From positions 1 to 64,000 of the IMG/VR virus record IMGVR_UViG_3300033074_000977: a stretch of 64,000 nucleotides of DNA; one strand, written 5' to 3'. Shown one piece after another: positions 5,587 to 31,817 of the stretch. The notes under the pieces were generated by a model. The model was not told the DNA's origin, searched no databases, and worked only from the letters and a program-made list of their open reading frames with translations. The first letter of the stretch is position 1; the number at the start of each line of letters is the position of its first letter. The translations under genes and the position numbers were made by a program. This stretch comes from a virus (taxonomy: Duplodnaviria; Caudoviricetes).

Positions 5587-7563
5587 ATGCCTGATGAAGT
5601 TATGCCTGTGCCCACACCAGATGAGCTAGAACCTGATGTCGGTAAGCTGGAGTTGGATCCCGAACCTGATACCGACGCTAACACCGAACCGTATCTCGAA
5701 TGTGACAACTGCCATGACATAATCCCAGCAGGCGCGGACACTTACGAAATGTCCGACCCGCCCAACCAAACTTGGTGCGTGGACTGCTACAACGACGAAG
5801 GTAGCCACTGTGAGGGCTGTGGCAACTATGTCGAAGTCAGCAGCTTAACTGAAGTCAGTTACCTTAACTGCGGTTTTACAGGGTGGAGCACTCGTGAGGT
5901 ATGTGAGAGCTGCTTAAACAGCGATTACCGCCAATGCGAACACTGTGACGATACTTGGTTCAATAGGGACCTCCGTAACTGGGCTGGGGATGAAGCCTGC
6001 CCAAGATGTCATAATAACGCAGCCTGTAGCTGCGACGACTGCGGTGCTGAATACTGGGATGGAGACAACCATTATGCATTCTGCGAAGGCTCACCCGATG
6101 ACGACAGTGACAGTTCAGCAATCCACGCGTGGGATTACGAGGTATTAAATACCTTAAACTTCCTCGGCCAACCCGCTGACAAACTATGGCTGGGTGTGGA
6201 ACTGGAAGTAGAGTGCAAGAGTGATAGTGGCTGGCATCGGGGCGAGCTGGCTGATGAAGTAGCCTATGCGATGCGCGACTTTGCGGTACTTAAATCCGAT
6301 GGCAGCCTCGATAACGGGTTCGAGATTGTCACCGCACCGGCCACTATAGAAATCCACCGTACTGAATGGACTAATCGCTTTTACGGCAAGTCCTTCATCA
6401 AGGGACTACGCAGCTGGGATGCGGGCACCTGCGGCTTGCACGTCCATATCTCGCGCAAACCGTTATCCAAGCTCACCCAAGCTAAGATCGTAGGGTTCTG
6501 TAACATCGAGGAAAACCGCACCTGGATGGAGAAACTAGCTGGGAGGACATCCAGTTACGCTGAGTTCAAGGATGTTGAGCAGCTGGGCAAGCAGTGGCGG
6601 CGGCAAAGTTCCCGCTATCGGGTAGTCAATGTCGAAAACGACGACACCCTGGAGTTCCGCATCTTCAAAGGCAGCCTCCGCCCGGAACGTCTCTGGCGTG
6701 CGCTGGAGTTCGTCCATAGTTTAGTAAAATTCTGTGAACAGACTTCCTTGGAAAAGTTACAGGCTAGCCAGTATTTGGAATGGCTGGGTAAGCATAAAAA
6801 GCTCTATCCCAGCTTGGCTGCGTTTTACTTTCCGAAAGCGGCAGCGGCTAAGCGCAACCCGAAGCAGCCAGGGTTATTTACGGTGGCGGCAGATAGTTGC
6901 CAGGGGGATGATAGTGGTAAGGGAGTTGTTACCTATGACGCTGAGCAGGAACTTGCAGCGCAACGTAAGATCGAGGAGCGTGTAGCTGAGCAGCGGCGGG
7001 CGCGGAAGGAGCGGGAACGGGAGTTGAAGCGACTGGAACGGGAACGGCTGGATGCTAGAGCAGCGGCTAGGGAGCCGGATTGGTATGGCAGTCGTGAACC
7101 TGTTGATGTGGTTGCGAGGGCGGCGGATGCCGAATTCCAAGCCTACGCTACTCCTGAGCGGATAGCTCAACGACGCGCATTTTACCAGCTGCAAATAGAT
7201 GAAGGTTCGCGGTCGGACTGGGAGGAAGTGCGTAGTTGTACACGGGGCTGTACCTGTCTAGACTGCCGTTTGATTGTGTATGTGGCTGAGTTGGTTATCC
7301 AGGAGCAGCGGGATGCAGAGGCTCAGACTGCGTATGACTACTCAGTGATGGAGGCGGTGCGGCACCTACGGCACGTAAGTGCTGCTTTTGTCAGTGTTTT
7401 ACCTGTTGAATCAACCGAACCTGCTAATCAAACCCTGACACCAACCTCAGACCTTACTGAAGCGGCTGCTGAACCTGAGCATCGGGAGGGTGGTGGAAGT
7501 GGTGTGGATAGAACCTTAACCTATGAAATGTTGGAGAACCTGTATCGGGATCTTCGATGGTAG
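5587..7563 (+). CDS. putative amidoligase (COOH-NH2 ligase, glutamine synthetase-like fold) with N-terminal Zn-ribbon repeats
   Basis: Motifs LGVELEVE, DGSL...FEIVTAP, TCGLHVHIS, RY..VN, TLEFRIFKGS; N-terminal CxxC repeats. Confidence 0.85.
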   Translation: MPDEVMPVPTPDELEPDVGKLELDPEPDTDANTEPYLECDNCHDIIPAGADTYEMSDPPNQTWCVDCYNDEGSHCEGCGNYVEVSSLTEVSYLNCGFTGWSTREVCESCLNSDYRQCEHCDDTWFNRDLRNWAGDEACPRCHNNAACSCDDCGAEYWDGDNHYAFCEGSPDDDSDSSAIHAWDYEVLNTLNFLGQPADKLWLGVELEVECKSDSGWHRGELADEVAYAMRDFAVLKSDGSLDNGFEIVTAPATIEIHRTEWTNRFYGKSFIKGLRSWDAGTCGLHVHISRKPLSKLTQAKIVGFCNIEENRTWMEKLAGRTSSYAEFKDVEQLGKQWRRQSSRYRVVNVENDDTLEFRIFKGSLRPERLWRALEFVHSLVKFCEQTSLEKLQASQYLEWLGKHKKLYPSLAAFYFPKAAAAKRNPKQPGLFTVAADSCQGDDSGKGVVTYDAEQELAAQRKIEERVAEQRRARKERERELKRLERERLDARAAAREPDWYGSREPVDVVARAADAEFQAYATPERIAQRRAFYQLQIDEGSRSDWEEVRSCTRGCTCLDCRLIVYVAELVIQEQRDAEAQTAYDYSVMEAVRHLRHVSAAFVSVLPVESTEPANQTLTPTSDLTEAAAEPEHREGGGSGVDRTLTYEMLENLYRDLRW

Positions 7564-7607
7564 TAAGTTACTCCCAACAAACAAGAAAGGATGAAACAAC
7601 AACAACC

Positions 7608-8576
7608 ATGTGTGTAATTATTCATAAACCAGCCGGGATCCAACTCGGCAAGAACAGTTCCGACCTCCTGCGCATCCTGCAAGATGCCGCTGCCATGAAC
7701 CGTGACGGGTTTGGCATCCAAGCCTGGGATAAGCGGGAAGGTAGCGGCAGGCTAGTCACCAACTGGAAACACGCTACTGACCAAGCGAAAATCTTAGAAG
7801 TAGCCTACACCAACCTTGACCGGATTGACTTAGAAGTAGTCGCGCACTGGCGTTTGGCTACGCACGGCGAGATCATCGAAGCTAACTGTCATCCGTTTCC
7901 GATTAACAGCAAGCTGAGCTTCTTCCATAATGGCGTGCTGAGTGGGTTTGGCAGCACGGTGAAAGGTGCGGAGAAATCCGATACCTTGGATTTCGTGGAG
8001 TCGGTATTACGTCCGCAGTTTGGTAGATGGCGCAGTAAGCCTAGTGAATGGCATAGCAAGCTGTTAGCTAAGTACGCGCAGGGGCAGCGGTTTGCCGTGA
8101 CAAATCATCGCGGTGAGGTGTGGCGGTTCGGGAGTTGGGTGGAGCAGGATGGTGTGTGGTATAGCAATGATTGGTTGCTGGGAGATACGTACAGCTATGT
8201 CAAAGGCTGGAGGCGACGGGATTGGCGGGATGAGCTGGATTACCTGGATGCTGCGGCAGCTGATTATGATGAGGATATGGAGGATGAGCTGGAATGGGAT
8301 AGTGAGCTGCATGAGTACGTGCCGGTAAAGTCCGTGCGTTGTGAGTGTTTTGGGGATATTTGTGGCGGGGAGCATGATTTGGTGTATGGCTGTCAGCGCC
8401 GCTCGAAGTATGAGGTTACGTTAACGGGCTGGAATGGGGATAAATATCGTAGCTACAGTTGTGCGGAATGCGCATGGCTGGGTGGGGTGGAAGGGGTGAG
8501 TGCGCCGACACAGCTATCGGGGCGCACAATTAAAGAGTCTGGTGAAGAAGTGGAGGTGATTTATGCCAGAAGTTGA
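7608..8576 (+). CDS. class II (Ntn) glutamine amidotransferase
   Basis: ATG 7608 gives N-terminal MC; motifs N.DGFG, HWRLATHG, NCHPF, HNG, SDT. Confidence 0.85.
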   Translation: MCVIIHKPAGIQLGKNSSDLLRILQDAAAMNRDGFGIQAWDKREGSGRLVTNWKHATDQAKILEVAYTNLDRIDLEVVAHWRLATHGEIIEANCHPFPINSKLSFFHNGVLSGFGSTVKGAEKSDTLDFVESVLRPQFGRWRSKPSEWHSKLLAKYAQGQRFAVTNHRGEVWRFGSWVEQDGVWYSNDWLLGDTYSYVKGWRRRDWRDELDYLDAAAADYDEDMEDELEWDSELHEYVPVKSVRCECFGDICGGEHDLVYGCQRRSKYEVTLTGWNGDKYRSYSCAECAWLGGVEGVSAPTQLSGRTIKESGEEVEVIYARS

Positions 8577-9258
8577 GCTTGAAGGTAAACTGATGACCTA
8601 CGAACAATACATCACCAAACATAACCTCCACCTGGATCTCACCTGGAAAGGCTTTGAGGTTGAACCTGCTACGGGCAAAGGTGCAGTAGGAAGTGAGTGG
8701 CCGTGTTTCAAATGGATCTATGAAGTACGCCGACAAACCCAGCATAGTAGCTCGTTGACTCTGCGCGGGGATTACACCCAAGGCATCGGACACGCACATA
8801 CAGATAAAGATTTGTACGCTAATGGAAAGCTGGATTATGACCCCAAAGTCGGGTTGTACTTCAGACTGCCACCCAGTCACCGTTGCTACTCAGTAGTATC
8901 TCAAGGGATGGAGTCACCTATCACAGAACAGCAAGCGTGCAGAGACGGTCGTTTGAAAGCTCGCACAGCTGAAGAATGCCGCCCGTGGTTTAAGTTTGAG
9001 GATCCAGATAGCCGGTTCCGAGGCCCGCAATACTTCGTTACCCGCCCTACCTTCCCCGATATATTAGATAGCTTACGCTCCGACGTCGAATGTGCTTACC
9101 CTACGTTCGAGGAGTTTGCTGCTGAGTTAGGTTATGCACCAGACAGCCGCTCCGCTGAAAAGATCTACCTAGCCTGCTGTGTCATAGAACGTAAGCTGCG
9201 TGGATTGGTAGGTGGGAAAGGGATGGTGGAGTTGTTGGAGGAGGTTGAGCGGCTATGA
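8563..9258 (+). CDS. hypothetical protein
   Basis: ORF overlapping upstream stop; C-terminal FEEFAAELGY..DSRSAEKIY segment typical of small phage proteins. Confidence 0.75.
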   Translation: MPEVELEGKLMTYEQYITKHNLHLDLTWKGFEVEPATGKGAVGSEWPCFKWIYEVRRQTQHSSSLTLRGDYTQGIGHAHTDKDLYANGKLDYDPKVGLYFRLPPSHRCYSVVSQGMESPITEQQACRDGRLKARTAEECRPWFKFEDPDSRFRGPQYFVTRPTFPDILDSLRSDVECAYPTFEEFAAELGYAPDSRSAEKIYLACCVIERKLRGLVGGKGMVELLEEVERL

Positions 9259-16324: not shown

Positions 16325-17749
16325 ATGTTAGCGATTAGAAAAGAACTACCTGTGATCTACACAGACCGTAGCCGGATTGAAACCGGCCAGCGCTGCCTAC
16401 GTAAGCGCTATTGGGAGTACCATTACCAACTGCCCACAATGCTACACGCTGGGCTACAACCCGCTAAGCCAGCGCTGGAGCTGACGGTTGGGTCGGCGGT
16501 GCATAAGGGGGTGGAGCTGTTACTTCAAGCAGCCATGACCTTGGATTACACACCCCCACTAAATAGTATAGATTTAGATACGGCTATCTTTGCGGGGTTG
16601 GCCGACTTCGATGCAGCTTGGCAACCCTGGCTGGAGCAATCCGATGCCTTCCAGGATAGCAGTGAAAGTAACCAGCTGCTATCCTACCAACTCACCGAAG
16701 CACGCGCGCTAATAGAAGCTTTAATCGCAGCGTTCTACTACGCACCGACAGGCTTACAACTACTCACAGAAAACTACGAGATCCTGGCAGTTGAACAGGA
16801 GATCGCGGTACCCCTTACCGACTGGCTGGTATTGAACTCTCGCCCGGATGCTATCCTGCGTCACCGTCGCACCGGGCAGTACTTCCCGTGGTCGTTGAAG
16901 ACCGCTAAGTCATGGGATGATCGTACCAACCAGCAGGCTGATGTAGATAACCAAGGGATCAGCGAGAGTGTTAGCACCGAATACTGGTTGAATCGCTATC
17001 CCGCTCCGCAACTCGAAGGTGCTGGTGGAGATTACACCGTCGCGGGGGTGCTGATGTGCTACCTCATCAAAGGCGAAAAACGCGCGGACGACTTCGGTAT
17101 CTACCGCACCAACTCTCCGTTGATCCGCCCCTACTTCAACACCGGTGCCTTCGACCCTACCGACCTAGCCCAGTACGCACCGTCCAATAAATGGACTTGC
17201 ACTGAGGAACACGAATGGAAAGGGGCGCGATTTGGCTACACAGTCAACGGCAAGAACGGTTGCCCGGGTGGTAAGAACCATATGCGCGGGGATAGCTGGC
17301 AGCAGGTGAATATCTGGGAACAGGGTGTGCGTGTGCAGGATTGGGTGAAGGAGCTATTCGAGCAGCAGCCTGAGCTGGGTGAGAAGTTCGTGCAGGTGCC
17401 TGCACCGTATCGGAGGGAGCGGGAGGAGCTGGAAAGCTGGATAGCCGAGCGAATCTTCCAGGAGCGTAGACTGGCGGATGGGACTGAAGTGATACATACT
17501 GGGTTATTATCAGATGTTACTACCATTCCTGGGTATGAAACTAGAAGTATCCTAGCTTCGCACTTTCCGATGTCACGCACGAGCTGCGTGTACCCTTGGA
17601 AGTGCAATGCACACTCTCTGTGCCATGCGGGAGGAGGTAGTAGATTGCTAGATCCAAACCTATTCTATGGCGAAAATTTGCTGGAATCTGAAAGTATCCC
17701 ACAGGAGTTAGGTTATGCTTCACGAGTCCCAAACCATCCCGAAACCTAA
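16325..17749 (+). CDS. Cas4/RecB-like PD-(D/E)xK exonuclease
   Basis: S.I.....C.RK.Y, GSAVH, AVEQE, RPD, SLKT; C-terminal C-x5-C-x5-C Fe-S-type cysteines. Confidence 0.75.
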   Translation: MLAIRKELPVIYTDRSRIETGQRCLRKRYWEYHYQLPTMLHAGLQPAKPALELTVGSAVHKGVELLLQAAMTLDYTPPLNSIDLDTAIFAGLADFDAAWQPWLEQSDAFQDSSESNQLLSYQLTEARALIEALIAAFYYAPTGLQLLTENYEILAVEQEIAVPLTDWLVLNSRPDAILRHRRTGQYFPWSLKTAKSWDDRTNQQADVDNQGISESVSTEYWLNRYPAPQLEGAGGDYTVAGVLMCYLIKGEKRADDFGIYRTNSPLIRPYFNTGAFDPTDLAQYAPSNKWTCTEEHEWKGARFGYTVNGKNGCPGGKNHMRGDSWQQVNIWEQGVRVQDWVKELFEQQPELGEKFVQVPAPYRREREELESWIAERIFQERRLADGTEVIHTGLLSDVTTIPGYETRSILASHFPMSRTSCVYPWKCNAHSLCHAGGGSRLLDPNLFYGENLLESESIPQELGYASRVPNHPET

Positions 17750-18464
17750 ATTTGAACTATTTGTTGGTGCGAAAATAGGTCGCCTCACCATTATTGGTGA
17801 ACGTGTTAGGTATAAAGAGACATTTAAGCACCCTTGTAGATGTATTTGCGGTAAAGAAGTGCTGATAATTCAGCAAAATCTTCGTACCGGGAAGGCCCAG
17901 TCATGTGGGTGCAGAGCAATTGAGGGTCGCACAAAACACGGACATCGAATATCCGGTAAGCGAGATCCAGAGTACTATACCTGGGTGTCAATGAAAGATC
18001 GTTGTTTGAATCCACGCAATAAACAATACGCTAACTATGGCGGGCGCGGAATATCTGTGTGCGAAGAATGGGTCGCTAGCTATGAAGAATTCTTAAATGC
18101 TGTGGGTAGACGGCCCTCTAATAAACACTCCTTAGATAGATACCCTAACAACGATGGTAACTACGAACCCGGGAATGTGCGTTGGGCCACTCAAACTGAA
18201 CAAGCCCGTAATAGGCGAAATAATGTACTAATCGCATTCAGGGATCAAGCAAAGTGTTTGATGGATTGGTGCAGGGAATTCAACTTGCCTTTTCCGGTCG
18301 TGCGTGTGCGGTTGAGTGAACTTGGCTGGACCATAGAAGCTGCACTTACGACTCCCATAGATGCGGTTAATAGATCAGACAGCTCAAGAAAGAGTTGGAT
18401 AACTAGAAAGGCTAACTTAGCCAAGTTAAAAGAGAGCGAGGTAACAACCGATGTCAACAGCTAA
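17715..18464 (+). CDS. HNH-type putative homing endonuclease
   Basis: Y..W.SMKDRC.NP....Y.NYGGRGI.VC..W...SLDR..NNDGNYEPGNVRWAT. Confidence 0.85.
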   Translation: MLHESQTIPKPKFELFVGAKIGRLTIIGERVRYKETFKHPCRCICGKEVLIIQQNLRTGKAQSCGCRAIEGRTKHGHRISGKRDPEYYTWVSMKDRCLNPRNKQYANYGGRGISVCEEWVASYEEFLNAVGRRPSNKHSLDRYPNNDGNYEPGNVRWATQTEQARNRRNNVLIAFRDQAKCLMDWCREFNLPFPVVRVRLSELGWTIEAALTTPIDAVNRSDSSRKSWITRKANLAKLKESEVTTDVNS

Positions 18465-18759
18465 GAACATAATGTCTATCACCTCCCTACGCCGCACCAT
18501 CCAGCGTATGGAGCAACTAACCGCACCCGTCGCCGGAACCAACTCCGAACGTCGCAAGCGTCATCGCCGCTGGCAGATGTTACTAGGTAAACTAGGCGAG
18601 GAAGCTAAGGCGCTCGCGCATCAACAGGTGTTAGACATCTTCTACAGCAGCGGCTCCATCGACGCACAAACTGCCTGTAATATGTACATCTACGGAAAGG
18701 AAGCAATCGAAAATGCCAAACCCATCGGAACTGAACCAACACATCCTGCAAGTAGCTGA
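18451..18759 (+). CDS. hypothetical protein
   Basis: ORF within the operon. Confidence 0.6.
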   Translation: MSTAKNIMSITSLRRTIQRMEQLTAPVAGTNSERRKRHRRWQMLLGKLGEEAKALAHQQVLDIFYSSGSIDAQTACNMYIYGKEAIENAKPIGTEPTHPASS

Positions 18760-19057
18760 CCAGCAGCACATCGACAACCCAGCTCACTTGCTGGTCGAAT
18801 CAATGGCCTCGCCGCAACTCGTGGCCAACTCAGAAGCTGGTCGGAATAACTTCGACGCGGAGGCTATTCGGAAACTCAAGGGCGCGGGCCATAACTACGA
18901 CGATACGTTAACCTTGGAGCAGAACTTAGCGAAGCTGCACCCCAGTAAATCTAAACCGGAAGACCTGGAGCGGTTGAACAGTCAGCTGGGGAACACTGTC
19001 GTCGTAGATGAACACATCTCAGGCGGCGGCGGGAACTTTTGGACTGCGCGCTGGTAG
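18713..19057 (+). CDS. hypothetical protein
   Basis: AAGGA SD; overlaps previous ORF by 47 nt. Confidence 0.6.
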   Translation: MPNPSELNQHILQVADQQHIDNPAHLLVESMASPQLVANSEAGRNNFDAEAIRKLKGAGHNYDDTLTLEQNLAKLHPSKSKPEDLERLNSQLGNTVVVDEHISGGGGNFWTARW

Positions 19058-19064
19058 TTTAGCT

Positions 19065-19172
19065 ATGCCAGCTACTATCTGTGAACTCAAAGGACACGCC
19101 TACCGATTACTCAAAGGATTCGGCAGGTACTACTGGAAGTGCGACCGTTGTGGGAAAGTACTAAATAACTAA
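19065..19172 (+). CDS. small zinc-ribbon peptide (35 aa)
   Basis: Hand-translated C...GH...W.C.RCG pattern. Confidence 0.5.
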   Translation: MPATICELKGHAYRLLKGFGRYYWKCDRCGKVLNN

Positions 19173-19186
19173 GGAGACTAACCCAA

Positions 19187-20200
19187 ATGCCCGAAGTAAC
19201 AGAACAACAAAAAATCAATAACTCCCTAATGATGTATAGTTATAGTGGCTGCGGCAAGACACGCGAATGCGGTGCTATCGCAGATTATTATTACTTCAAA
19301 ACAGGTGGCAAGCGCGTTCGCTACATCACTGCCGACACAGGCGGCTGGCAGCCGATTCAACCTTACATCGACGCCGGAATGATCGACGCTGTTAGTATCG
19401 CCGGACACCCGGACTTTCTCCATGTCCTACGCGGGTTATCAGAAGGCTACTGGCTAACCACTGAAGGTAAGTTGATCCCTGAGAAGGGCCGCCTAGCTGA
19501 TACTGGGTTAATCATCATCGAATCCCTCACCTCCATCTGCCAGGAGATCATGGGTTACTACCAGGATAACCGCTTGAAATTCGCGCAGGATCTGGTAGCG
19601 GTGCAGCAAGTGCGCTCCCACGACCCTGAGTTGGATAAGATTCTTGGGGCACAGACGATTTCAGCAGTAGCACAGGCGCATTATTCAGGGTTGCGGGATG
19701 AATTGTTTGGTAGGATCCGAGATTTCCAGCGACTAATTGCACAGGGCGTAGATGGATTGGTGTTCACCTCGCACGAGAGTTCAGGGCAGGAGTCAATCGC
19801 CGGGATCAAACGCACCCAGCTGGGTATTGGCGCATTGGGTCAAGCGATTAGCCCAGCCCTACCGCAGCGCTTCGGGGATCTGATCCACCTGGACACGATC
19901 ACGGTGAATAACAAGCTGGAGTATCGGGCGTACTTCCAACCACACCAGGATGCTGAGCTGCGCCGTGAATGGCCTGCTCGGTTGCGCACGGATGCCAGCT
20001 TGAACAAAGCGATACTTGAACATCCCGATTTCAAGCAGGGGTATTTGGTACTGACTGATGAGGCGGATCCCACTCAGCGGCAGGGGATTACCAAGCTGTT
20101 GAGATTCAGGGATCAGTTGCAGAGTAACGCGGCGGATAAGATTCGTGCACGGATGGCTGCGGCGAAGACAGCTACTGAAGGAGCTGTTACTAATGGCTAG
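19187..20200 (+). CDS. AAA_24/Sak4-like ATPase (putative recombinase)
   Basis: P-loop YSYSGCGKT; IIIESLT Walker B-like; FTSHE; beside the exonuclease and SSB-like genes. Confidence 0.7.
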   Translation: MPEVTEQQKINNSLMMYSYSGCGKTRECGAIADYYYFKTGGKRVRYITADTGGWQPIQPYIDAGMIDAVSIAGHPDFLHVLRGLSEGYWLTTEGKLIPEKGRLADTGLIIIESLTSICQEIMGYYQDNRLKFAQDLVAVQQVRSHDPELDKILGAQTISAVAQAHYSGLRDELFGRIRDFQRLIAQGVDGLVFTSHESSGQESIAGIKRTQLGIGALGQAISPALPQRFGDLIHLDTITVNNKLEYRAYFQPHQDAELRREWPARLRTDASLNKAILEHPDFKQGYLVLTDEADPTQRQGITKLLRFRDQLQSNAADKIRARMAAAKTATEGAVTNG

Positions 20201-20450
20201 TGTAGAGTTGTGGCTAGATGTCATCTACAAGCTAACTAATGACGAAGCCCGACTAATAGGCTTAGCATTAACACATACAGCTAATGATGAAGCTTATAAG
20301 CTGTCCAGAAGTCAGGACAAAGAGGCTATGGCTAGCTTAAACAACAGGCTACTGGAGCTGCGTAAATTGAAGTTACTGGAAGCGGTTAAAGTTACGGAAG
20401 CCGCGCAGCAGCGTATAGCGAAAGCTGCTGAAGGAGGTGATGCCAAGTGA
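20193..20450 (+). CDS. hypothetical protein
   Basis: ATG 20193 after AAGGAG SD. Confidence 0.65.
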   Translation: MASVELWLDVIYKLTNDEARLIGLALTHTANDEAYKLSRSQDKEAMASLNNRLLELRKLKLLEAVKVTEAAQQRIAKAAEGGDAK

Positions 20451-20585
20451 ATGAAATTAGCATAGTCCCAAAGACCATTGGGCTTTCCCGGGGGATACGC
20501 ATCCGGTAAAACACGCTAAACCGATACAACTCAACTCGATTAACTCGATAACAACCAACAACGATAACAAAGGACAACAACAACC

Positions 20586-21362
20586 ATGAACAACTTAGAT
20601 AACAACACAACCGATTCGTTCGACATCAACAACCCCAACCTCGCCGCCGAAGGCGAAGGCATCGAAGGCTTTGACCCGAACGCCGACTCCAACGCCCCGC
20701 CGAAACCTCCCAACGCCGGAGCCTACCTCCTCCAACTCGACTTCGCTGAAGCTGAAGTAGAGAAGCGGTTCAAACATGGCAGCAAGGATGACCCTACCAA
20801 GGATCAACTGATGACTTCCTTCACCGCCACCATCGTAGGCTGCGACAAGCAGGACTACGAGGAGAAGCATTGGCAGGGTCGGAAGATCGGCGGGAAGTCC
20901 GGGTTCATCGTGGGTAGCTGGACCGTCCGTGGCCAACGTGGTACCTCCGGCTACGGCGATCTGCTCAAGGCTTACGGGTTGAAACCCAAGCAACTGGCCG
21001 GGTTGGCAGGCGCGGGTGGACAGAAGCGCTGGGAGGATACCCCGGTCGAAGAGCTGATCACTGACTGCGTACTGTCCGGTCAACCAGTCCGAGCCTACTG
21101 CGACTGGGAGTGGGCTGGTTCCACCAAGGAACTGATCGACCCCAACACTGGTAAACCTTACTACATCCGCTTCGACTACAAGGACGATCAGCTGAAGAAC
21201 GTCCCGCAGGGGATGAAGGCGGCGAAGGATGATGGTAAGGGTGGGAAGCTGCACCAGCAGACTTTCCACTTCCAGTCACCGGATGGTGAGGGTAGTGAGG
21301 ATGTGCAGCTGTTTGCGAGTCTGCGGGTGGAGCGGTTTATGCCGCCGAAGGCTGGGCAGTAG
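20586..21362 (+). CDS. ssDNA-binding-like protein (DUF669-like)
   Basis: Acidic N-terminus, P..G.Y OB-fold-type start; position in the recombination module. Confidence 0.5.
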   Translation: MNNLDNNTTDSFDINNPNLAAEGEGIEGFDPNADSNAPPKPPNAGAYLLQLDFAEAEVEKRFKHGSKDDPTKDQLMTSFTATIVGCDKQDYEEKHWQGRKIGGKSGFIVGSWTVRGQRGTSGYGDLLKAYGLKPKQLAGLAGAGGQKRWEDTPVEELITDCVLSGQPVRAYCDWEWAGSTKELIDPNTGKPYYIRFDYKDDQLKNVPQGMKAAKDDGKGGKLHQQTFHFQSPDGEGSEDVQLFASLRVERFMPPKAGQ

Positions 21363-21425
21363 GGTAGCTGCCGGATTAACCGTCAACGACTTACCATCAC
21401 AGTTCCTTCTCTCGTCTAACTAAAA

Positions 21426-21480
21426 AGATCCCAGGTTAGGTTAGCTTCACAACCTACCCCAGCCTGGGATCTGATTTTTT
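21426..21480 (+). terminator. intrinsic terminator-like hairpin
   Basis: AGATCCCAGGTT/AGCCTGGGATCT, inner AGGTT/AACCT, followed by GATTTTTT and preceded by an A-run. Confidence 0.65.
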
Positions 21481-21502
21481 CCTACTCAGAGGTATCTCAC
21501 CT

Positions 21503-24052
21503 ATGGAAACCCAAGAAATCATCGACCATTTCGAGCGGCTCCGCTGCACTGCCAAGTACCCTGTCTTCTACTTAACTGGGCAGGCAGGCACCGGCAAAAC
21601 GTACACCATCAAACAAGCTATCGAGCAACAACCGAACTTCGCGCAGCTCGCAGCATCCACCGGTATCGCAGGCGTGAACCTGGGCACCACCACCATCAAC
21701 CAAGTGCTGAAATATTTCAACACTGACTCGCTGCTGGACTCCTACCAATCCGGGCAGCTGACTATGAACTTACGTAAAGTGCGCAAGTTCAACCGCTTTC
21801 TGGTGATCGACGAAGCATCAATGATCCCCTATCAACAGCTGGATATATTCCTCTGGGCGTTGGATGAGATCAATGCTGATGTGGAGGATGACGCGCGGTT
21901 AGGTTTAATCCTCATCGGAGATTTTTGCTTGGGTTACGGCACTAAAGTGATGATGGCCGATGGTAGCCTAAAAGTTGTTGAAGACATTAAAGCAGGCGAT
22001 CAAGTAATGGGACCGGATAGCAAGCCCCGCAATGTGCTCAGAACTACGACAGGATTGGATACTTTGTATCAAGTTAACCAGACTAACGGTGATTCTTATG
22101 TAGTTAATTCTAAACACCCAATTGTACTGCGGCGTAGTAAGGATGGTAAAGCTTCGTGCGATGGGCGTTGGCCCAGATACCCTGACTACGCTGATAACTT
22201 AACGTTAACTGCGCCGGAACTGCTGTTAAAATCCGATAAATTTCGTTCGTGTTTCTTTGGGTATAAAGCAGGCGTGGTTAAGTTTCCTGTGCGACAGGCA
22301 CCTACTTTAGATCCGTATTTTGTAGGCTTATGGCTAGGCGATGGCGACAAAGATGCGCCTCGAATAACTACGGCTGACCCGGAAATTGTAGATTACTTGG
22401 AATCCTTGTCGAATGTGTACGGATTGAATCTCACAATTAGTGGGTGGGATAGAACATCCGCAGTACGGATAGGAATTACACATGGGAAATCCAAGGGTAA
22501 TATTCCCAACCCTATACGAACCAAACTAAGCGCGTTAAGCTTGTTCAATAGCAAGCACATACCTGATGATTATTTGTATGCCATAGAAGCTGCTAGGTTG
22601 GATCTACTTGCAGGACTTATAGATTCTGACGGAAGCTTTACAGGTAATCGTTACACCATTGCTTGTGGGATAGAAAAGTTGGCTCACCAAATAAAACAAC
22701 TAGCTGATCAATTAGGTTTCAGGTCTACTATTCAACCAGTAAAAAGCGGGCCATACGCCAACAATCCAAATAAGTCTATGTGGAGGATTTCAATTGGGGG
22801 TGACACTTGGAGAATCCCCTGTAAGGTTGCCAGAAAAGTATCCAACCCTAGATCACTTGGACGCACGCGCATAGAGTCTAAGGTTTCAATTGAACGGTTA
22901 GGGCGCGGTTTGTATGCAGGATTTGAAACCGATGGTGATCATTTGTTTCTGCTGGCAGACGGTACTGTTACCCATAACTGCCAGCTCCCCCCAGTCCCGG
23001 GCAATCTCATCGTCGCGGGCAAACCAGTCCTAACCAAAGATGGTCAGCGCAACGTCAAGGAACCTACCCCCTGGGCGTTTAAGTCTGAGTTGTGGAGTAG
23101 GTTCGAGGAAGAAGGCCATATTATTAAGCTGGAAAAGATCTACCGACAATCCGATCCGACCTTCCTCAATGGTATTAACGCCATCCGCAAGGGACTGGGT
23201 AAATCAGGAGTGAGTTACCTCGCCGCCGCTGGGGTTGAGTTCACGCGCGAGCTGGATAACTACTTCGACGGCACCACCATCGTAGGCAAGAACGAGGAAG
23301 TAGATCGGATTAACAAGATCCGGTTGAACCAGCTGGAAGGTAAGACCCAGCAGCTACCTAGTACACGCTGGTGGGCAGGGGAAGTGTTGGGCTGGAAACA
23401 ACCCAGCGAATGGCAGTACATCCCCGAGCAGTTGGAGTTAAAGCTGGGTGCGTATGTGATGATATTGAGTAACTTGAAGGATCCGCTGACAGGGCGGATG
23501 GAAGCTGCGAATGGAGATTGTGGGTGGGTCAGGGAGATCACTCAGCTGCGTGTGCCTGTGTATGGTGCGCCAGATCCTGAGTCTGATGATCCCACAGCAC
23601 CTCCTACGATTATCTCAGAGGAGATCCAGTGGGTGGTGCGCGTAGAGTTAGTCCGCCGCCCTGATGAACTCGTCACCATCCCAGTAGTCAAACGCAACAT
23701 CGAATCTCGGCATGACGTTGACGACGTACTTAAAACACATCCTAAATTCAACCGCGACGAAGCTGGCAACCCTAAGAAGATCCGTAATTCAATGGGTCGG
23801 TCGGTCTGGTGTTTAGGCACGATTGAATACTTCCCATTGCGGTTGGCTTACGCTACTACTACACACAAGTCGCAAGGGTTGTCATTGGACAGGATCCAGA
23901 TTGATCCGCGCGGGCACTTTATGGGACAACCGGCTATGGCGTATGTAGCGTTGAGTCGCGGGCGCACGCCGGAAGGGATTAAGATCGTGGGGAATAGTAG
24001 TTTATTTGCGGAGCGGGTGCGGCTTGATGAGGCTGTGCGGCGCTTCGTTTAG
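21503..24052 (+). CDS. Pif1/RecD-like SF1B helicase interrupted by an intein
   Basis: TGQAGTGKT, ASTGIAG, IDEASM, GDF^CQLPPV, AYATTTHKSQG, YVALSRGR. Confidence 0.9.
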   Translation: METQEIIDHFERLRCTAKYPVFYLTGQAGTGKTYTIKQAIEQQPNFAQLAASTGIAGVNLGTTTINQVLKYFNTDSLLDSYQSGQLTMNLRKVRKFNRFLVIDEASMIPYQQLDIFLWALDEINADVEDDARLGLILIGDFCLGYGTKVMMADGSLKVVEDIKAGDQVMGPDSKPRNVLRTTTGLDTLYQVNQTNGDSYVVNSKHPIVLRRSKDGKASCDGRWPRYPDYADNLTLTAPELLLKSDKFRSCFFGYKAGVVKFPVRQAPTLDPYFVGLWLGDGDKDAPRITTADPEIVDYLESLSNVYGLNLTISGWDRTSAVRIGITHGKSKGNIPNPIRTKLSALSLFNSKHIPDDYLYAIEAARLDLLAGLIDSDGSFTGNRYTIACGIEKLAHQIKQLADQLGFRSTIQPVKSGPYANNPNKSMWRISIGGDTWRIPCKVARKVSNPRSLGRTRIESKVSIERLGRGLYAGFETDGDHLFLLADGTVTHNCQLPPVPGNLIVAGKPVLTKDGQRNVKEPTPWAFKSELWSRFEEEGHIIKLEKIYRQSDPTFLNGINAIRKGLGKSGVSYLAAAGVEFTRELDNYFDGTTIVGKNEEVDRINKIRLNQLEGKTQQLPSTRWWAGEVLGWKQPSEWQYIPEQLELKLGAYVMILSNLKDPLTGRMEAANGDCGWVREITQLRVPVYGAPDPESDDPTAPPTIISEEIQWVVRVELVRRPDELVTIPVVKRNIESRHDVDDVLKTHPKFNRDEAGNPKKIRNSMGRSVWCLGTIEYFPLRLAYATTTHKSQGLSLDRIQIDPRGHFMGQPAMAYVALSRGRTPEGIKIVGNSSLFAERVRLDEAVRRFV
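21926..22978 (+). mobile_element. intein with LAGLIDADG homing endonuclease (351 aa)
   Basis: Starts CLGYGTKVMMADG, ends VTHN before Cys+1; motifs VGLWLGDG and LAGLIDSDG; inserted in helicase motif III. Confidence 0.92.
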
Positions 24053-25477: not shown

Positions 25478-25710
25478 GTAACATCTACAGCACTAATGAG
25501 CGTAACCCAGAGGCCGACAACACTGAGGCATCTCAACTACTCAAGATCATCTACGATGAGTCTGAATGCGAGTTAGGTTATGACAGTGAGCTACTAACTA
25601 ACTGGGAGCGTGAGTTCCTGGAGTCGGTAGACAGCAACCTAGCTCGGGGTTGGAACGTAACCCAGAAACAACTTTTCAAACTCCGTGACATAAAGGATAA
25701 ACTTCTATGA
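25474..25710 (+). CDS. hypothetical protein
   Basis: LTNWEREFLES...TQKQ motif; ATGA overlaps at both ends. Confidence 0.7.
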   Translation: MSNIYSTNERNPEADNTEASQLLKIIYDESECELGYDSELLTNWEREFLESVDSNLARGWNVTQKQLFKLRDIKDKLL

Positions 25711-28478
25711 CACCAAAACCTCACACTTGCTCGTCGTGCCTTTTAGCTGACACCCCCGGCTGCACCGGCTTCATGCCAGCCCCCGAGGGTAAAGGTTTAA
25801 TCCCGCTTCTCGTAACGGCAGAGGCTTTAGGCGAGAATGAGGCACGCGATTCAAAACCGCTACGTCCCTATGCGGAATCTGGATCTCTATTTGAACGTGC
25901 GTTACGTTCAGTAGGAATCCAGCGCGAGCAAATAATCGTAACCAACATCATAAAATGTCGGCCTCCGGCTAACCGGCTCGCTGGCGAATACTACGAGCAG
26001 CCAGCTATTGAACACTGCCGACAATACTTCGACGCCGAAGTATCCCAATACAAACCCAAAGCTATCCTGGCAATGGGTGCGATACCATTCAAGTATCTAA
26101 CCGGGATGTCAGGTCACAAGCAAAACCTCGAATACGTGCGTGGCTACCCGGTAGAATCTATCTGGTATCCAGGGATCCCCGTGATCGGCACGTTCCATCC
26201 GTCGTATATCCGACGTGGCGCATCTGAGATGTTTCCGGTGTTGGTTCACGATCTGCATAAAGCGTTACAGATTGCCAAAGGAAAATTACCCTGGACAACT
26301 GCGCCTGAACAGGTAACTTACCAGCTAGGCGGAGTAGCTGAATTAAAGCAGATGTTGGATATACTTAGATCCCAACCTGACAGACTGCTGGCCTACGACA
26401 TCGAAACCCGTGAGTCAGCTAAAACCAACGAAGACGAATACGATTCGTTGTCGCCTAACGCTGAGATCGAATTAGTCCAATTATCCATCGCCCCAACCAC
26501 CGGGCTGGCTGTGTATTGGAACAGCGATACTATCCCCTTACTTAAAGAGATCTTCGCTACCGCTAACCCCAAATCAGCCTTCAATGGATGGTTATTTGAT
26601 AATAGAGTCCTTGAGGCTAAAGGTTTAACCCTCAACGGAGAACTCCGTGACGCAATGGCAGCATGGCATCATTTGCAACCAGACTTACCAGCTAACTTAC
26701 AATTCGTCTCATCGTTCTACGGTATGCCTCGTCCTTGGAAACACGAGATGGGTGCGGATTTAGTCACCTATGGGATCCGTGACGTGGATGCGGTGCAACG
26801 TATTGAGTCTAAGATTAACTCTGACCTAGCCCAAATGAAGATCCATGACGGCTATAAAAACTACGTAGTCGGTTTACGTCCTATCTTGAAAGCTATGGAG
26901 GAGCGTGGAATTGGCCGGGATCAACAAGCGATTGACGAATTAAAACTATGGATCGAACAGGAGAAGGTGAGGTTGAACGCTGAGATCCAGCAGTTAGCTC
27001 CAGCTGAGATTAAACCTGTTCAGAGATGGACTAGCTGGCCGCTAGACCTATCCGAAGCTCGCAAGACTTGGGCAGAAGCCAACCCCTACATCCCGATCTC
27101 CGTGAAAACTGGTAAGCCTTTGAAGGCTAGGATACCGGTGGTCAAGATCGAAGATCTGCGGTTGGCTGTAACCCAAGCAATGCATCCCGTAGGTGTGGGC
27201 GCACACGATATGTTAGCCACAGTTGAGAGATTAGGATATAAGTTCCATCCAACTAAACAAGAACTATGTAAAGAGCTACCGTTCCTTCCAGGATCCACGC
27301 AGCATCTAATGGCTTACCTACGTCACCAAGGTGTCGCAGTGCCTAAAGATCTGGACGGTAAAGATACCACCGGTCGTAGCGAGTTAGATAAATTAGTTAA
27401 AAAACTCAACCGCTCAACCAAACCCAACGAACAGGAAGCGGCCACGTTTATCAACAAGGTACTGGAATATCGCAAGCTGCATAAAGTTCTAGCTACCTAT
27501 ATCGAAGGCTGGAAGAACGGCCCGGACGGTCGGATCCATACTACGTTTACGTTCTTACCGGCTACAGGTCAGCTCTCCTCCCGCAACCCTAATGTTCAGA
27601 ACGTAGGCAAAGGTTCCGAATTAGCAAAGCGTTTTCGCAGAACTATCACACCAGCCCCGGGGCACGTGCTAGTCGAAGCTGATTACAAATCGTTCCACGC
27701 TTTGACATTAGGCTTCGAGGCGCAAGATCCAGACTATATGCGGTTAGCCCGACTGGATTGTCATAGTTTCGTGGCAGCGCATCTATTGAAACTACCCGAA
27801 GCTACATCGGGTAAACTGATTGAAATGTCCGACGCTGAAATGTTGGACTTCTTCAAATGGTTCAAATCAGATCCTGAACGCAAGCTGATCCGTGACAAAA
27901 AGGCGAAGCCTAGCATTCTCGGTATAGGTTTCGGCTTAGGCAAACACAAACTCTACACAATGAACGAAGATTCGTTCGCCAACGAAGCCGAAGCTGGCAA
28001 GGTCATCACGTTAATCCGTGGAATCTTTCCTAAAGTGTTTGAGTTCCAGGAAAACGTTAAACAACTAGCTTATCGTCAAGGTTGGTTACGGTCACGCTGG
28101 GGTTTTGTGCGTAGGTTTTCAGATGTGTATCGGTACAACTCCAGATCTCAAGGGTTGACTGCGGGAATGGATGCTGAAGCTTGTATCGCATTCCTACCAG
28201 CTAATTCAGCGTTCGGCAAAGTGCGTGAGGCAATGTTGGACTTCGAGCGCGAGGGGTTGAACGTTAGGTATAACTGCGTGTCCAGCGTTCACGATTCGAT
28301 TATATTTGACGTACCTGGAACGTTGATCGACGAAGCGTTGCCTAAGATCAAGGAGATAATGGAGCGGCCTGGAAGTATGTTGGTGGATCCGGTTGTGGCA
28401 CCGAATGGTTTACATTGTGAGGTTGAGTTGTCTATTTCGGACAGATCCTGGGCTGATCTACAGGAGGTGAAAGTATGA
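25707..28478 (+). CDS. polA: family A DNA polymerase with N-terminal UDG-family-4-like and 3'-5' exonuclease domains; divergent active site
   Basis: UDG-like: CxxC, AEALGENE, NIIKCRPP.NR, HPS. Exo: YDIET, N...FD, YGIRD. Pol: TGQLSS.NPNVQN, ADYKSFH, AK...LGIGFG, VHDS. Confidence 0.88.
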   Translation: MTPKPHTCSSCLLADTPGCTGFMPAPEGKGLIPLLVTAEALGENEARDSKPLRPYAESGSLFERALRSVGIQREQIIVTNIIKCRPPANRLAGEYYEQPAIEHCRQYFDAEVSQYKPKAILAMGAIPFKYLTGMSGHKQNLEYVRGYPVESIWYPGIPVIGTFHPSYIRRGASEMFPVLVHDLHKALQIAKGKLPWTTAPEQVTYQLGGVAELKQMLDILRSQPDRLLAYDIETRESAKTNEDEYDSLSPNAEIELVQLSIAPTTGLAVYWNSDTIPLLKEIFATANPKSAFNGWLFDNRVLEAKGLTLNGELRDAMAAWHHLQPDLPANLQFVSSFYGMPRPWKHEMGADLVTYGIRDVDAVQRIESKINSDLAQMKIHDGYKNYVVGLRPILKAMEERGIGRDQQAIDELKLWIEQEKVRLNAEIQQLAPAEIKPVQRWTSWPLDLSEARKTWAEANPYIPISVKTGKPLKARIPVVKIEDLRLAVTQAMHPVGVGAHDMLATVERLGYKFHPTKQELCKELPFLPGSTQHLMAYLRHQGVAVPKDLDGKDTTGRSELDKLVKKLNRSTKPNEQEAATFINKVLEYRKLHKVLATYIEGWKNGPDGRIHTTFTFLPATGQLSSRNPNVQNVGKGSELAKRFRRTITPAPGHVLVEADYKSFHALTLGFEAQDPDYMRLARLDCHSFVAAHLLKLPEATSGKLIEMSDAEMLDFFKWFKSDPERKLIRDKKAKPSILGIGFGLGKHKLYTMNEDSFANEAEAGKVITLIRGIFPKVFEFQENVKQLAYRQGWLRSRWGFVRRFSDVYRYNSRSQGLTAGMDAEACIAFLPANSAFGKVREAMLDFEREGLNVRYNCVSSVHDSIIFDVPGTLIDEALPKIKEIMERPGSMLVDPVVAPNGLHCEVELSISDRSWADLQEVKV

Positions 28479-28993
28479 CACGTGAAATATGGAAACCCAT
28501 TCCTTGTACTAAAGGTTGCTACGCCGCGTCTAATTTAGGGCGCGTGCGTAGTATTCTAGCTATCGGATCCAGACGTACTGGCAAGGTGCTAAAGACGCAA
28601 CAAGAATCTGACGGCAGGTATCGAGTGTCGTTACATTTGCCGTGGGTAGGTAAATGGGGATTGAAACGATTCTTGGTACATAAGCTGGTGATAGAAGCTT
28701 TCAAAGGAGAATGCCCAGTTGGTTATGAGGTTAACCATAAAGATGGCGTGCATACTAATAACCGATTGACTAACTTGGAATATATTCCTAAGCGAAAGAA
28801 CTACGATCACGCAGTCGAGCATAAGCTATATGCTCACAGCGAAAAACGTGGGCTGTCAAAGCTGACTACGAATACGGTTAAGGTGATTCGTAAGTCGGAG
28901 TTACCTGGAAAGGTTCTGGCAGAGATTCATGGAGTAAGCACCGCAGCTATCTCTGCTATTCGTAAACGTAAGATATGGAAGTATGTTGATTAA
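28475..28993 (+). CDS. NUMOD4-HNH putative homing endonuclease
   Basis: WKPI....Y..SNLGRVRS; VHKLV..AF; VNHKDG...NNRLTNLEY. Confidence 0.88.
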   Translation: MTREIWKPIPCTKGCYAASNLGRVRSILAIGSRRTGKVLKTQQESDGRYRVSLHLPWVGKWGLKRFLVHKLVIEAFKGECPVGYEVNHKDGVHTNNRLTNLEYIPKRKNYDHAVEHKLYAHSEKRGLSKLTTNTVKVIRKSELPGKVLAEIHGVSTAAISAIRKRKIWKYVD

Positions 28994-31070: not shown

Positions 31071-31817
31071 TCAATACGGTCTAAAGATCGACATAAGTAT
31101 AGCGGCGAGTTGTGCAAACTGCAATGGTTTCTGGAATCTGCGCGCCTGCTTGGTAATCGGTGGCAGTTCGGCAGTAGCAGCGTCTAAGTTAGCAGTTATC
31201 CCGGCAGCATGTTGAGTAGTGCTTAACGCCGCCGTTACCAAATCATCCAGCTTCGGATCCGCCAACCGCTGGTTCACCGTCTGCACCGTCACATCGCCCA
31301 TCGCTACTAAATGATTCAACGCACCGATCACCTGCTCCACCGATGCACCCGTGCCTTGCGCGATAACATTAACCCCATCCACCAGCTTCGTCACAGACTT
31401 CGTACCAGCCACAATCTCAGGCAACAGCTCCTGGTTAACTCGTGTGTTTGTATCTGCTACCAACCTACTTCCCTCACCAACCAACCCTTCCAACCGATCC
31501 GTTGCGGCGGTGCTAGACCTCAACTGCGCCAACACAGCTGGTATCACTTGTGTGTTAATCAACCTACCCGTTGCTTGATAAGTCGCGCCGACCGCCAGTG
31601 CCGCCTCAACAGCCTTTTGGTTCTTGGTCGATTCCAGTACCTGTCTCTGTGCCACCCAATAGTCATTAAACTCCTTTGAAGTGTTACGGAGGTTTTCCGT
31701 GGTGCCGCGTAGGTCACGCAGCAACCCGCGTAGGTTCCACCAGAGATTACCTATGACGATCAAGCTTAACAATAGCAACCCTACCTTCAGCCAATCTTTT
31801 ACCTTATTTATATCCAT
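31071..31817 (-). CDS. membrane-anchored helical/coiled-coil protein (possible lysis accessory)
   Basis: N-terminal TM, long helical body, hydrophobic C-terminus; adjacent to the holin. Confidence 0.6.
   Translation of the reverse strand: MDINKVKDWLKVGLLLLSLIVIGNLWWNLRGLLRDLRGTTENLRNTSKEFNDYWVAQRQVLESTKNQKAVEAALAVGATYQATGRLINTQVIPAVLAQLRSSTAATDRLEGLVGEGSRLVADTNTRVNQELLPEIVAGTKSVTKLVDGVNVIAQGTGASVEQVIGALNHLVAMGDVTVQTVNQRLADPKLDDLVTAALSTTQHAAGITANLDAATAELPPITKQARRFQKPLQFAQLAAILMSIFRPY

Follow-up and report, generated by a model that had tools for sequence, protein, structure and literature searches.

A deep clade of UDG-fused phage family A DNA polymerases carries a coupled glutamine-histidine replacement at the TGR arginine and the steric gate

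The 64,000-nucleotide stretch of DNA analysed here (the window) is the first 64 kb of the 73.7 kb IMG/VR record IMGVR_UViG_3300033074_000977, which is complete by CheckV and derives from an uncultured wastewater phage. One of its genes encodes a protein (P0001; Table 1) in which a uracil-DNA glycosylase (UDG), a 3'-5' exonuclease and a family A DNA polymerase (PolA) are fused. In the polymerase active site of this protein, in Klenow numbering, the arginine of the TGR motif (R668) is a glutamine and the steric-gate glutamate (E710) is a histidine. P0001 falls within a large, deep and monophyletic clade marked by this coupled R668Q/E710H change, referred to below as the Q/H clade, the canonical state being R/E. 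The gene product is probably the replicative, proofreading DNA polymerase of its phage and a member of this clade of UDG-fused PolAs. No description of a PolA lineage with glutamine at the TGR arginine or histidine at the gate was found in the searchable literature, and the clade was apparently described neither by the 2023 PolA classification nor by the 2026 work on UDG-PolAs.

In family A polymerases Arg668 reads the minor groove at the primer terminus (the 'fork'), while Glu710 packs against C2' of the incoming nucleotide and serves as the ribonucleotide gate. The protein in which both are replaced passes the Pfam cut-offs for UDG (61 bits against 24.3) and for DNA_pol_A (102.3 bits against 34.3). 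In phmmer searches, structures of family-4 UDGs match residues ~6-190, and Bst, Taq and Klenow match the C-terminal half. An AlphaFold2 (AF2) model built with 64 family sequences as input has a mean pLDDT of 93.1 and a pTM of 0.88, and Foldseek matches it to Klenow (8oo6) and the Bst large fragment with an E-value of 1e-23 and target-normalised TM scores of 0.77-0.82. Within its own genome, P0001 is the sole match to this polymerase. Among the features by which a PolA is recognised, the catalytic aspartate pair (D659 and D863), the O-helix lysine (K734) and the acidic residues of Exo I, II and III are all present, and those that depart from the canonical set in each of four alignments are the steric-gate glutamate, with His664 in its place, and the TGR arginine, with Gln622.

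These alignments comprise a phmmer alignment with Bst Pol I; a MAFFT E-INS-i alignment with nine reference PolAs (E. coli Pol I, T7 gp5, Thermus phage YS40, N4 gp39, roseophage DSS3phi2, the SPO1-like Bacillus phage BCPG1, Methanomicrobiales virus vir526, Vibrio phage PG28 and Clostridium phage CPAS-15); a MAFFT L-INS-i alignment with 30 viral loci; and a hidden Markov model (HMM) alignment of 243 family members, 242 of which are covered at the signature positions. All four give the same equivalences between Klenow and P0001: R668 to Q622, D705 to D659, E710 to H664, K758 to K734, F762 to L738, Y766 to F742, N845 to A828, Q849 to A832 and H881/D882/E883 to H862/D863/S864. The AF2 secondary structure, a strand at 653-660 followed by a helix at 663-671, agrees with a canonical motif A. 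A first-pass annotation of the window had proposed, from an alignment by eye, that R668, E710 (with His664 at codon 27696), F762, Y766, N845 and Q849 are all replaced, and each of these assignments was reproduced; none of the four alignments places canonical residues at these positions. Retention of the D705 and D882 equivalents and of all three exonuclease motifs, which it had also reported, was seen in the alignments and checked at the codons. The change from HDE to HDS at motif C aligns as had been stated, but it cannot be counted as unusual, since HDS, HDA or HDQ occurs in six of the nine references (YS40, BCPG1, CPAS-15, N4, PG28 and vir526). The Tt72/YS40 lineage, which belongs to this HDS/HDA/HDQ group, has a biochemically characterised member (PMC9324360). 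R668 and E710 are kept by all nine references, the N4-like and SPO1-like ones included.

Table 1. Coordinates of the polymerase gene, its domains and motifs, and other genes of the window
Feature	Position	Strand	Basis or detail
UDG / 3'-5' exonuclease / family A DNA polymerase fusion gene (P0001)	25707..28478	+	Open reading frame and translation; 923 aa, stop-free
N-terminal family-4 UDG-like domain	25707..26291	+	phmmer to T. maritima / T. thermophilus family-4 UDGs, E 1e-19
UDG motif residues	E39 25821-25823 (motif A AEALG); N80 25944-25946; H164 26196-26198 (motif B FHPSY)	+	
3'-5' proofreading exonuclease domain	26304..26906	+	Aligned to E. coli Exo I-III
Exonuclease motifs	Exo I D231/E233 26397-26405; Exo II N293..D298 26583-26600; Exo III Y355..D359 26769-26783	+	Codons checked
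Polymerase domain (thumb, palm, fingers)	27264..28475	+	Pfam DNA_pol_A; phmmer Bst/Taq/Klenow; Foldseek
Gln622 (CAG) in TGQLSS, equivalent to Klenow R668 (TGR arginine)	27570..27572	+	Alignments
Motif A DYKSFH	27681..27698	+	Catalytic Asp659 27681-27683; His664 (CAC) 27696-27698, equivalent to steric gate E710
Motif B / O-helix KPSILGIGF	27906..27932	+	Lys734 (K758), Leu738 (F762, B3), Phe742 (Y766, B4)
Motif 6 AFLPAN	28188..28205	+	Ala828 (N845), Ala832 (Q849), Asn833
Motif C HDS	28290..28298	+	His862 (H881), catalytic Asp863 (D882), Ser864 (E883)
Conserved replication module upstream of the polymerase	16325..24052	+	Pfam and PHROG matches
PD-(D/E)XK nuclease-domain protein	16325..17749	+	
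~340-aa ATPase	19187..20200	+	
258-aa protein	20586..21362	+	
Superfamily 1 (SF1) Dda-like helicase, 849 aa with intein	21503..24052	+	Hint + LAGLIDADG homing endonuclease, ~residues 142-414
HNH homing-endonuclease genes	28475-28993 and 17715-18464	+	First is NUMOD4 + HNH_3 and overlaps the polymerase stop codon (ATGA)
Walker-A P-loop protein, 543 aa	13886..15517	+	
Amidoligase-like (658 aa; phrog_16683, weak Amidoligase_2), class-II glutamine amidotransferase-like (339 aa) and phrog_4273 (231 aa) proteins	5587..9258	+	Adjacent genes
Protein of 2139 aa at the start of the convergent structural arm	31817-38236	-	

The Q/H pair is not a peculiarity of a single phage. A word-indexed search recovered 393 relatives, all of them UDG-PolA fusions, typically on 57-77 kb contigs and many with inteins. 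An exhaustive profile search of 1.84 billion cluster representatives matched ~67,000 PolA representatives; among the matches listed, at least 150, each standing for a cluster at 50% identity, all scored above 847 bits. Family members are only 33-58% identical to P0001, and the constant presence of Q and H among them lies well outside what chance would give. In the HMM alignment the R668 position is glutamine in 242 of 242 members and the E710 position is histidine in 242 of 242; both catalytic aspartates are equally invariant (242/242), as is the exonuclease DxE (243/243), and the K758-equivalent lysine is present in 239. The remaining positions of the active site are variable among the 243 members. 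The F762 position, known as B3, is leucine in 212, histidine in 22 and phenylalanine in three; the Y766 position, B4, is phenylalanine in 175, leucine in 39, asparagine in 20 and tyrosine in eight. The N845 position is alanine (223) or serine (17), the Q849 position alanine (162), glutamine (44) or serine (29), with asparagine as the next residue in 185, and the E883 position serine (133), alanine (61), glutamate (22) or aspartate (19). Because Leu762, Phe766, Ala845, Ala849 and Ser883 all vary within the clade, only the glutamine and the histidine form its fixed signature. The invariance of this pair together with that of the catalytic aspartates and the DxE motif means that the polymerase has not decayed, and at the level of sequence it shows strong purifying selection on what appears to be a working enzyme, as the first-pass annotation had supposed. 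The same annotation had spoken of a loss of the gate and the minor-groove sensors, for which an invariant replacement under strong constraint is the better description.

The phylogenetic distribution of the pair is consistent with a single origin. The family profile recovered 55 viral loci, in which every full-length polymerase at least 30% identical to P0001 has both glutamine and histidine, except for one (L041, 30% identical), which is R/E. The more distant UDG-PolAs in the 30-locus alignment are all R/E and none shows a mixed state. Overall, 18 Q/H rows stand against 22 R/E rows with zero mixed rows, so that the substitutions are concerted, as had been suspected, with Q and H perfectly coupled and defining the clade. 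In a maximum-likelihood tree from which the two signature columns had been removed, the 18 Q/H rows are monophyletic with a Shimodaira-Hasegawa-like approximate likelihood ratio (SH-aLRT) support of 100 and a stem length of 0.7. Their sister group consists of R/E UDG-PolAs of uncultured phages (joint node SH-aLRT 95), followed by vir526, with the N4-like and the SPO1-like/YS40 enzymes further out. A 117-row tree recovered the split between Q/H and R/E again. In that tree, histidine at B3 shows at least 10 gains or reversions within the clade and does not occupy a basal position, and B3 is thus plastic while Q/H is frozen; a stepwise route to the signature by way of histidine at B3 was considered and rejected for the same reason. 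It is on the whole likely that the R668-E710 pair was swapped once, as a unit, for Gln-His and then retained without exception.

Histidine at B3 is also found outside the clade. Six of the R/E sisters (L042, L043, L044, L046, L049 and L051) have histidine there (KAKRIVHGSNYGM), where PolAs normally have phenylalanine, tyrosine or leucine, and it is the same residue as in the 22 Q/H members counted above; a histidine at the 762 position appears to be undescribed. Two other R/E UDG-PolAs of 1140 aa (L052:4013-7435 and L053) have an insertion of ~360 aa inside motif A, between the catalytic aspartate and the gate glutamate, with an HNH-like segment, which is probably an active-site intein. Among the Q/H polymerases, P0004, P0007, P0008, P0022, P0191, P0193, P0204, P0239 and others are 1150-1717 aa long, contain one to three inteins and are matched by the profile in 2-4 stretches, Hint/LAGLIDADG Pfam domains being recorded in P0007. 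In five loci of the clade (L028, L031, L032, L035 and L036) the polymerase is divided between two open reading frames, one for the UDG and exonuclease (~385-420 aa) and one for the polymerase (~520-620 aa). Tunturi 1 (PP887698) was ruled out as a cultured model, as it is without a homologue of the P0001 polymerase.

Published work on other PolAs offers a possible reason for the coupling. The Bst residues that correspond to R668, E710, Q849 and D882 are close neighbours with electrostatic interactions among them (PMC10520511). In the closed complex E710 pairs with Y766, and Hohlbein et al. (2013) called these two residues 'universally conserved within A-family polymerases'; in Klenow, the changes E710A and E710Q create mutators and impair fingers closing, whereas Y766F is nearly wild type (PMC3715850), and phenylalanine at B4 is for that reason benign. 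The combination of R to Q with E to H removes one positive and one negative charge while keeping two polar side chains of similar reach. Given the interaction between R668 and E710 and the balance of charge, a coupled swap is the simplest account of the perfect Q/H coupling; given the cost of a lone change at 710 in the Klenow mutants, the pocket would have been changed as a set and then frozen. On balance, the pattern is best read as that of a normal polymerase, replicative, proofreading and uracil-scanning, in which the sugar and minor-groove pocket has been rebuilt with compensating changes. His664 would fill the space beside the sugar C2' and still exclude ribonucleotides, and Gln622 would retain a hydrogen bond to the minor groove of the primer terminus. 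The rest of the pocket (Leu or His at B3, Phe or Leu at B4, Ala in place of N845 and Q849, and Asn833) would have adapted around the new pair, and the iron-sulphur (Fe-S) UDG domain would inspect template that is still single-stranded, ahead of the active site, and remove uracil. Such an enzyme would copy ordinary DNA from ordinary dNTPs by a different structural solution. The relaxed discrimination of sugar and base that had been proposed earlier is not favoured by this comparison, as histidine is about as bulky as glutamate and glutamine could still form hydrogen bonds.

Several observations weigh against a rebuilt but functionally ordinary pocket. Each of the four residues that surround the incoming sugar (668, 710, 762 and 766) departs from the canonical set, and since E710Q is a mutator in Klenow, unchanged properties cannot be assumed for a changed pocket. 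The sugar pocket and the UDG pocket are altered in exactly the same clade, which might reflect a different substrate chemistry. The clade is without the primase that its R/E sisters carry beside the polymerase. Finally, most genes in the clade genomes have no known function, and an unrecognised modification pathway is therefore possible.

The UDG domain of P0001 has the motif A that had been read from its sequence, AEALG, and retains E39, N80 and H164, which are catalytic in SP15-like UDG-PolAs (PMC13697223). The Fe-S cysteines C8, C11, C84 and C104 are present and are conserved across the clade too; P0001 also has the HPS of motif B and Asn80 before KCRPP. In the family, E39 is found in 220 of 243 members, N80 in 227 and H164 in 229. 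Two features of this domain are confined to the Q/H clade: motif A has changed from GEAPG to GEA(L/S)G, the R/E sisters being canonical, and a two-residue 'RP' insertion directly follows the uracil-stacking phenylalanine (Leu52 in P0001). The NCBIfam model TIGR00758 scores 76 bits against a cut-off of 125.3, whereas the Pfam model is passed. Judged by the criteria used for SPO1-like and SP15-like enzymes, activity would be expected of the domain, and by analogy with the SP15-like ones it probably scans the template ahead of the active site and excises uracil. In three members of the clade (L020, L021 and L025) the Fe-S cysteines of the UDG are lost (e.g. WY-RPP for KC-RPP, with the N-terminal CxxC missing) and the motif A glutamate and motif B histidine are kept.

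Comparison with known UDG-PolAs places P0001 apart from each described group. The N4-like enzymes (N4 gp39 and DSS3phi2) share with it the order UDG-exonuclease-PolA, a length of ~860-920 aa, a gene position after an SF1 helicase and a podovirus-style genome of ~70 kb in which giant virion proteins are encoded in a convergent block. However, they keep R668 and E710 (SGRLSS, DFxSLE) and, as cluster #17 of Czernecki et al. (2023), have phenylalanine at B3 and an inactivated UDG that has lost its catalytic residues, whereas SPO1, SP-10 and SP-15 have intact UDG residues (PMC10201439); P0001 retains E39, N80 and H164 and has leucine at B3. Identity between the N4-like enzymes and P0001 is 28-30% over part of the polymerase domain, and N4 and DSS3phi2 form a separate long branch. 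The SP15-/SPO1-like enzymes (YerA41, phiLo, SP-15 and SPO1) likewise have a fused UDG with its catalytic glutamate and histidine. The YerA41 and phiLo structures were solved by Missoury et al. (2026), in whose work the UDG excises template dU ahead of the polymerase and E53 and H178 of phiLo are catalytic (PMC13697223). E39 and H164 of P0001 match these two residues, and SP15-like enzymes are, by analogy, the best available model for its UDG domain. They differ in having a canonical gate, an O-helix phenylalanine, large inserts and a C-terminal domain (YerA41 is 1306 aa against 923 aa for P0001); judged from length, P0001 is unlikely to contain the SP15-like Insert 1, Insert 2 or ~80-aa C-terminal domain. 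Their phages have hypermodified thymine and carry PolX and ligase, whereas ThyA-like and ATP-dependent ligase genes were absent from the 21 Q/H genomes, and the SPO1-like representative BCPG1 is distant from P0001 in the tree.

The nearest relatives in the tree, the R/E-type UDG-PolAs (L041-L051) and vir526 (BK063670), have the same architecture and a motif 6 of the SFLPQS type that is already without N845, but they keep the TGR motif, the gate glutamate and GEAPG; as noted, several have histidine at B3. With Klenow and Bst, P0001 shares the exonuclease and polymerase fold, the catalytic aspartate pair, the O-helix lysine and the exonuclease DEDD residues at an identity of ~18-25%. It differs from them in that the UDG domain replaces the 5'-3' exonuclease and that R668, E710, F762, Y766, N845, Q849 and E883 are all changed. 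Some of these changes are known elsewhere. Leucine at B3 is a recognised natural variant of SPO2-like, KPP25-like and phiJL001-like enzymes and of phiVC8 DpoZ (PMC6302109, PMC10201439), and phenylalanine at B4 is special to two DpoZ clusters (PMC10201439). Leu762, Phe766 and HDS, which the first-pass annotation had listed among the distinctive changes, are thus all known or common variants. B3 is the most variable of the conserved positions marked in the 2023 classification, and across its 19 clusters the sole TGR variation given in the text is T to A in cluster 14; that text gives no change of the TGR arginine or the gate glutamate in any cluster, those with Leu762 or DpoZ included (PMC10201439). 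DpoZ phages carry PurZ, which the P0001 genome does not, and the NCBIfam DpoZ model scores 20.7 bits on P0001 against a cut-off of 500 bits.

An alternative explanation is that the polymerase and UDG pockets are adapted to a non-canonical nucleotide altered at its minor-groove edge or sugar, supplied by an unrecognised pathway or by the host, with the UDG policing the canonical base that it replaces. The minor-groove sensors (668, 845 and 849), UDG motif A and the insertion beside the stacking phenylalanine all change in the same clade, the SPO1- and SP15-type fusions come from phages with modified thymine (PMC10201439, PMC13697223), and the many genes of unassigned function in the clade genomes would leave room for such a pathway. 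Scans for modification genes covered the P0001 genome and 20 other Q/H genomes, the majority of which are complete or close to it. ThyA-like, PurZ and DpdA/TGT genes were not found in any of the 21, nor were ThyX, dUTPase or QueC in the P0001 genome, so that the earlier suggestion of modified bases gained no marker genes and the known base-replacement pathways were rejected as an explanation. None of the conserved neighbours of the polymerase resembles a nucleotide-modifying enzyme, and none has a Pfam match. The amidoligase-like and amidotransferase-like genes of the window (Amidoligase_2/GATase_4) were considered as a DNA-modification module and set aside, their Pfam matches being weak and the amidoligase not being shared with the 20 other clade genomes. 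Several studies of wastewater, sludge and freshwater contain the DNA of the phage in ordinary shotgun runs; standard libraries sequence and assemble it readily, unlike the heavily hypermodified DNA of YerA41 (PMC13697223). The absence of modification genes and the ordinary sequencing argue against known pathways and bulky hypermodification, though not against a small novel modification, and adaptation to a non-canonical nucleotide is considered unlikely.

A further possibility is that the Q/H pocket alters sugar selectivity, with His664 tolerating or hydrogen-bonding the 2'-OH, so that ribonucleotides are added or extended and the polymerase makes its own primers, in place of a primase, or embeds ribonucleotides in its product. 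The gate glutamate is gone and the four sugar-contacting positions are all changed, and recognition of the 2'-OH by the related T7 RNA polymerase involves a histidine (H784). Histidine is, however, nearly as bulky as glutamate, at a position where RNA polymerases have glycine, and steric exclusion should therefore persist; moreover, a proofreading replicative polymerase of the PolA fold is not known to initiate de novo. The gene content speaks on both sides of the self-priming that had been suggested. Four R/E sister genomes, all complete, encode a phrog_14296 primase, whose gene directly follows that of the polymerase in the three with flanks compared. No such primase was found in the 21 Q/H genomes, nor were Prim-Pol or Toprim_2 domains. 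On the other hand, RNase H, FEN and ATP-dependent ligase were not found in the Q/H or the R/E genomes examined. The phages must for that reason depend on the host for these replication functions, and host primase may serve equally in lagging-strand work; as the absence is common to both groups, it does not separate Q/H from R/E. An unrecognised primase may also hide among the many unannotated open reading frames. Primase absence is thus a weak correlate of self-priming, and altered sugar selectivity as a whole is quite unlikely. The chance is slimmer that this is a natural PolA lineage with changed sugar recognition, in which His664 and Gln622 allow ribonucleotides or some other 2'-variant substrate to be used efficiently enough for the enzyme to begin or lengthen primers of its own; if that were true, it would account for the loss of a primase that the sister lineage has kept beside its polymerase gene.

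The Q/H enzymes might also be polymerases of naturally lower fidelity, in which weakened minor-groove checking raises the mutation rate and the exonuclease offsets part of it. R668A, N845A, E710A and E710Q all decrease the fidelity of Klenow (PMC10520511; PMC3715850), and the N845 and Q849 equivalents are mostly alanine in the clade. Absolute conservation of Q and H nevertheless fits a precise functional requirement rather than relaxed checking, the exonuclease is wholly intact, members throughout a deep clade maintain genomes of 57-100 kb, and Asn833 and Gln622 could re-create minor-groove contacts, all of which makes a mutator lineage very improbable. Although two residues reported as conserved across PolAs are missing, it is scarcely credible that the polymerase site is degenerate and the protein only a UDG, an exonuclease or a scaffold, given that both catalytic aspartates, the O-helix lysine and His862 are invariant, that Q/H is invariant over at least 150 clusters at 50% identity, that the AF2 model is confident and that the genome holds no other match to this polymerase.

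The genomic setting of P0001 is that of a phage replication gene. It lies downstream of the intein-bearing SF1 (Dda-like) helicase and upstream of an HNH endonuclease; intein-free homologues of the helicase in related phages are ~450-520 aa long. Of 25 Q/H loci whose neighbourhoods were clustered, 16 have the ATPase, 14 the helicase and 13 the nuclease. The inteins, together with the free-standing endonucleases, suggest that selfish elements pass through the replication module in large numbers. Many genomes of the clade, which range from 57 to 100 kb, assemble completely with terminal repeats. The 543-aa product of the open reading frame upstream of the module has a Walker-A P-loop (family consensus VVGxSGSGKT) and homologues in four of 20 related genomes, with no Pfam or PHROG match; it was considered as a primase candidate and set aside, leads being weak and the AF2 pLDDT 42. 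It may be a replication initiator or a helicase. On the opposite strand, the only recognisable segment of the 2139-aa protein is endolysin-like (residues 877-1058, phrog_7348). This protein probably belongs to the virion, internally or as an ejected component, and carries a cell-wall hydrolase. No virion RNA polymerase of the N4 type was recognised. Two wastewater metatranscriptome (cDNA) runs contain ~47% of the sampled words of the polymerase gene, which is consistent with transcription in situ, DNA carry-over being another possibility.

Textbooks treat Glu710 and Arg668 as fixed points of the family A polymerases, and the engineering of Taq, Klenow, Bst and Pol theta for the synthesis of RNA or xeno nucleic acids begins with mutating them. 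An abundant and deep natural clade in which both are replaced is therefore a ready-made experiment on how the pocket can be rebuilt while supporting the replication of 57-100 kb genomes. It adds a lineage to the 2023 PolA classification and to the 2026 work on UDG-PolAs, provides a new scaffold for polymerase engineering and tests the reach of the 'universal' rules of sugar and minor-groove checking. Should the altered pocket prove to reflect altered substrate use, it would be a sign of an unrecognised nucleic-acid chemistry or mode of priming in common wastewater and soil phages.

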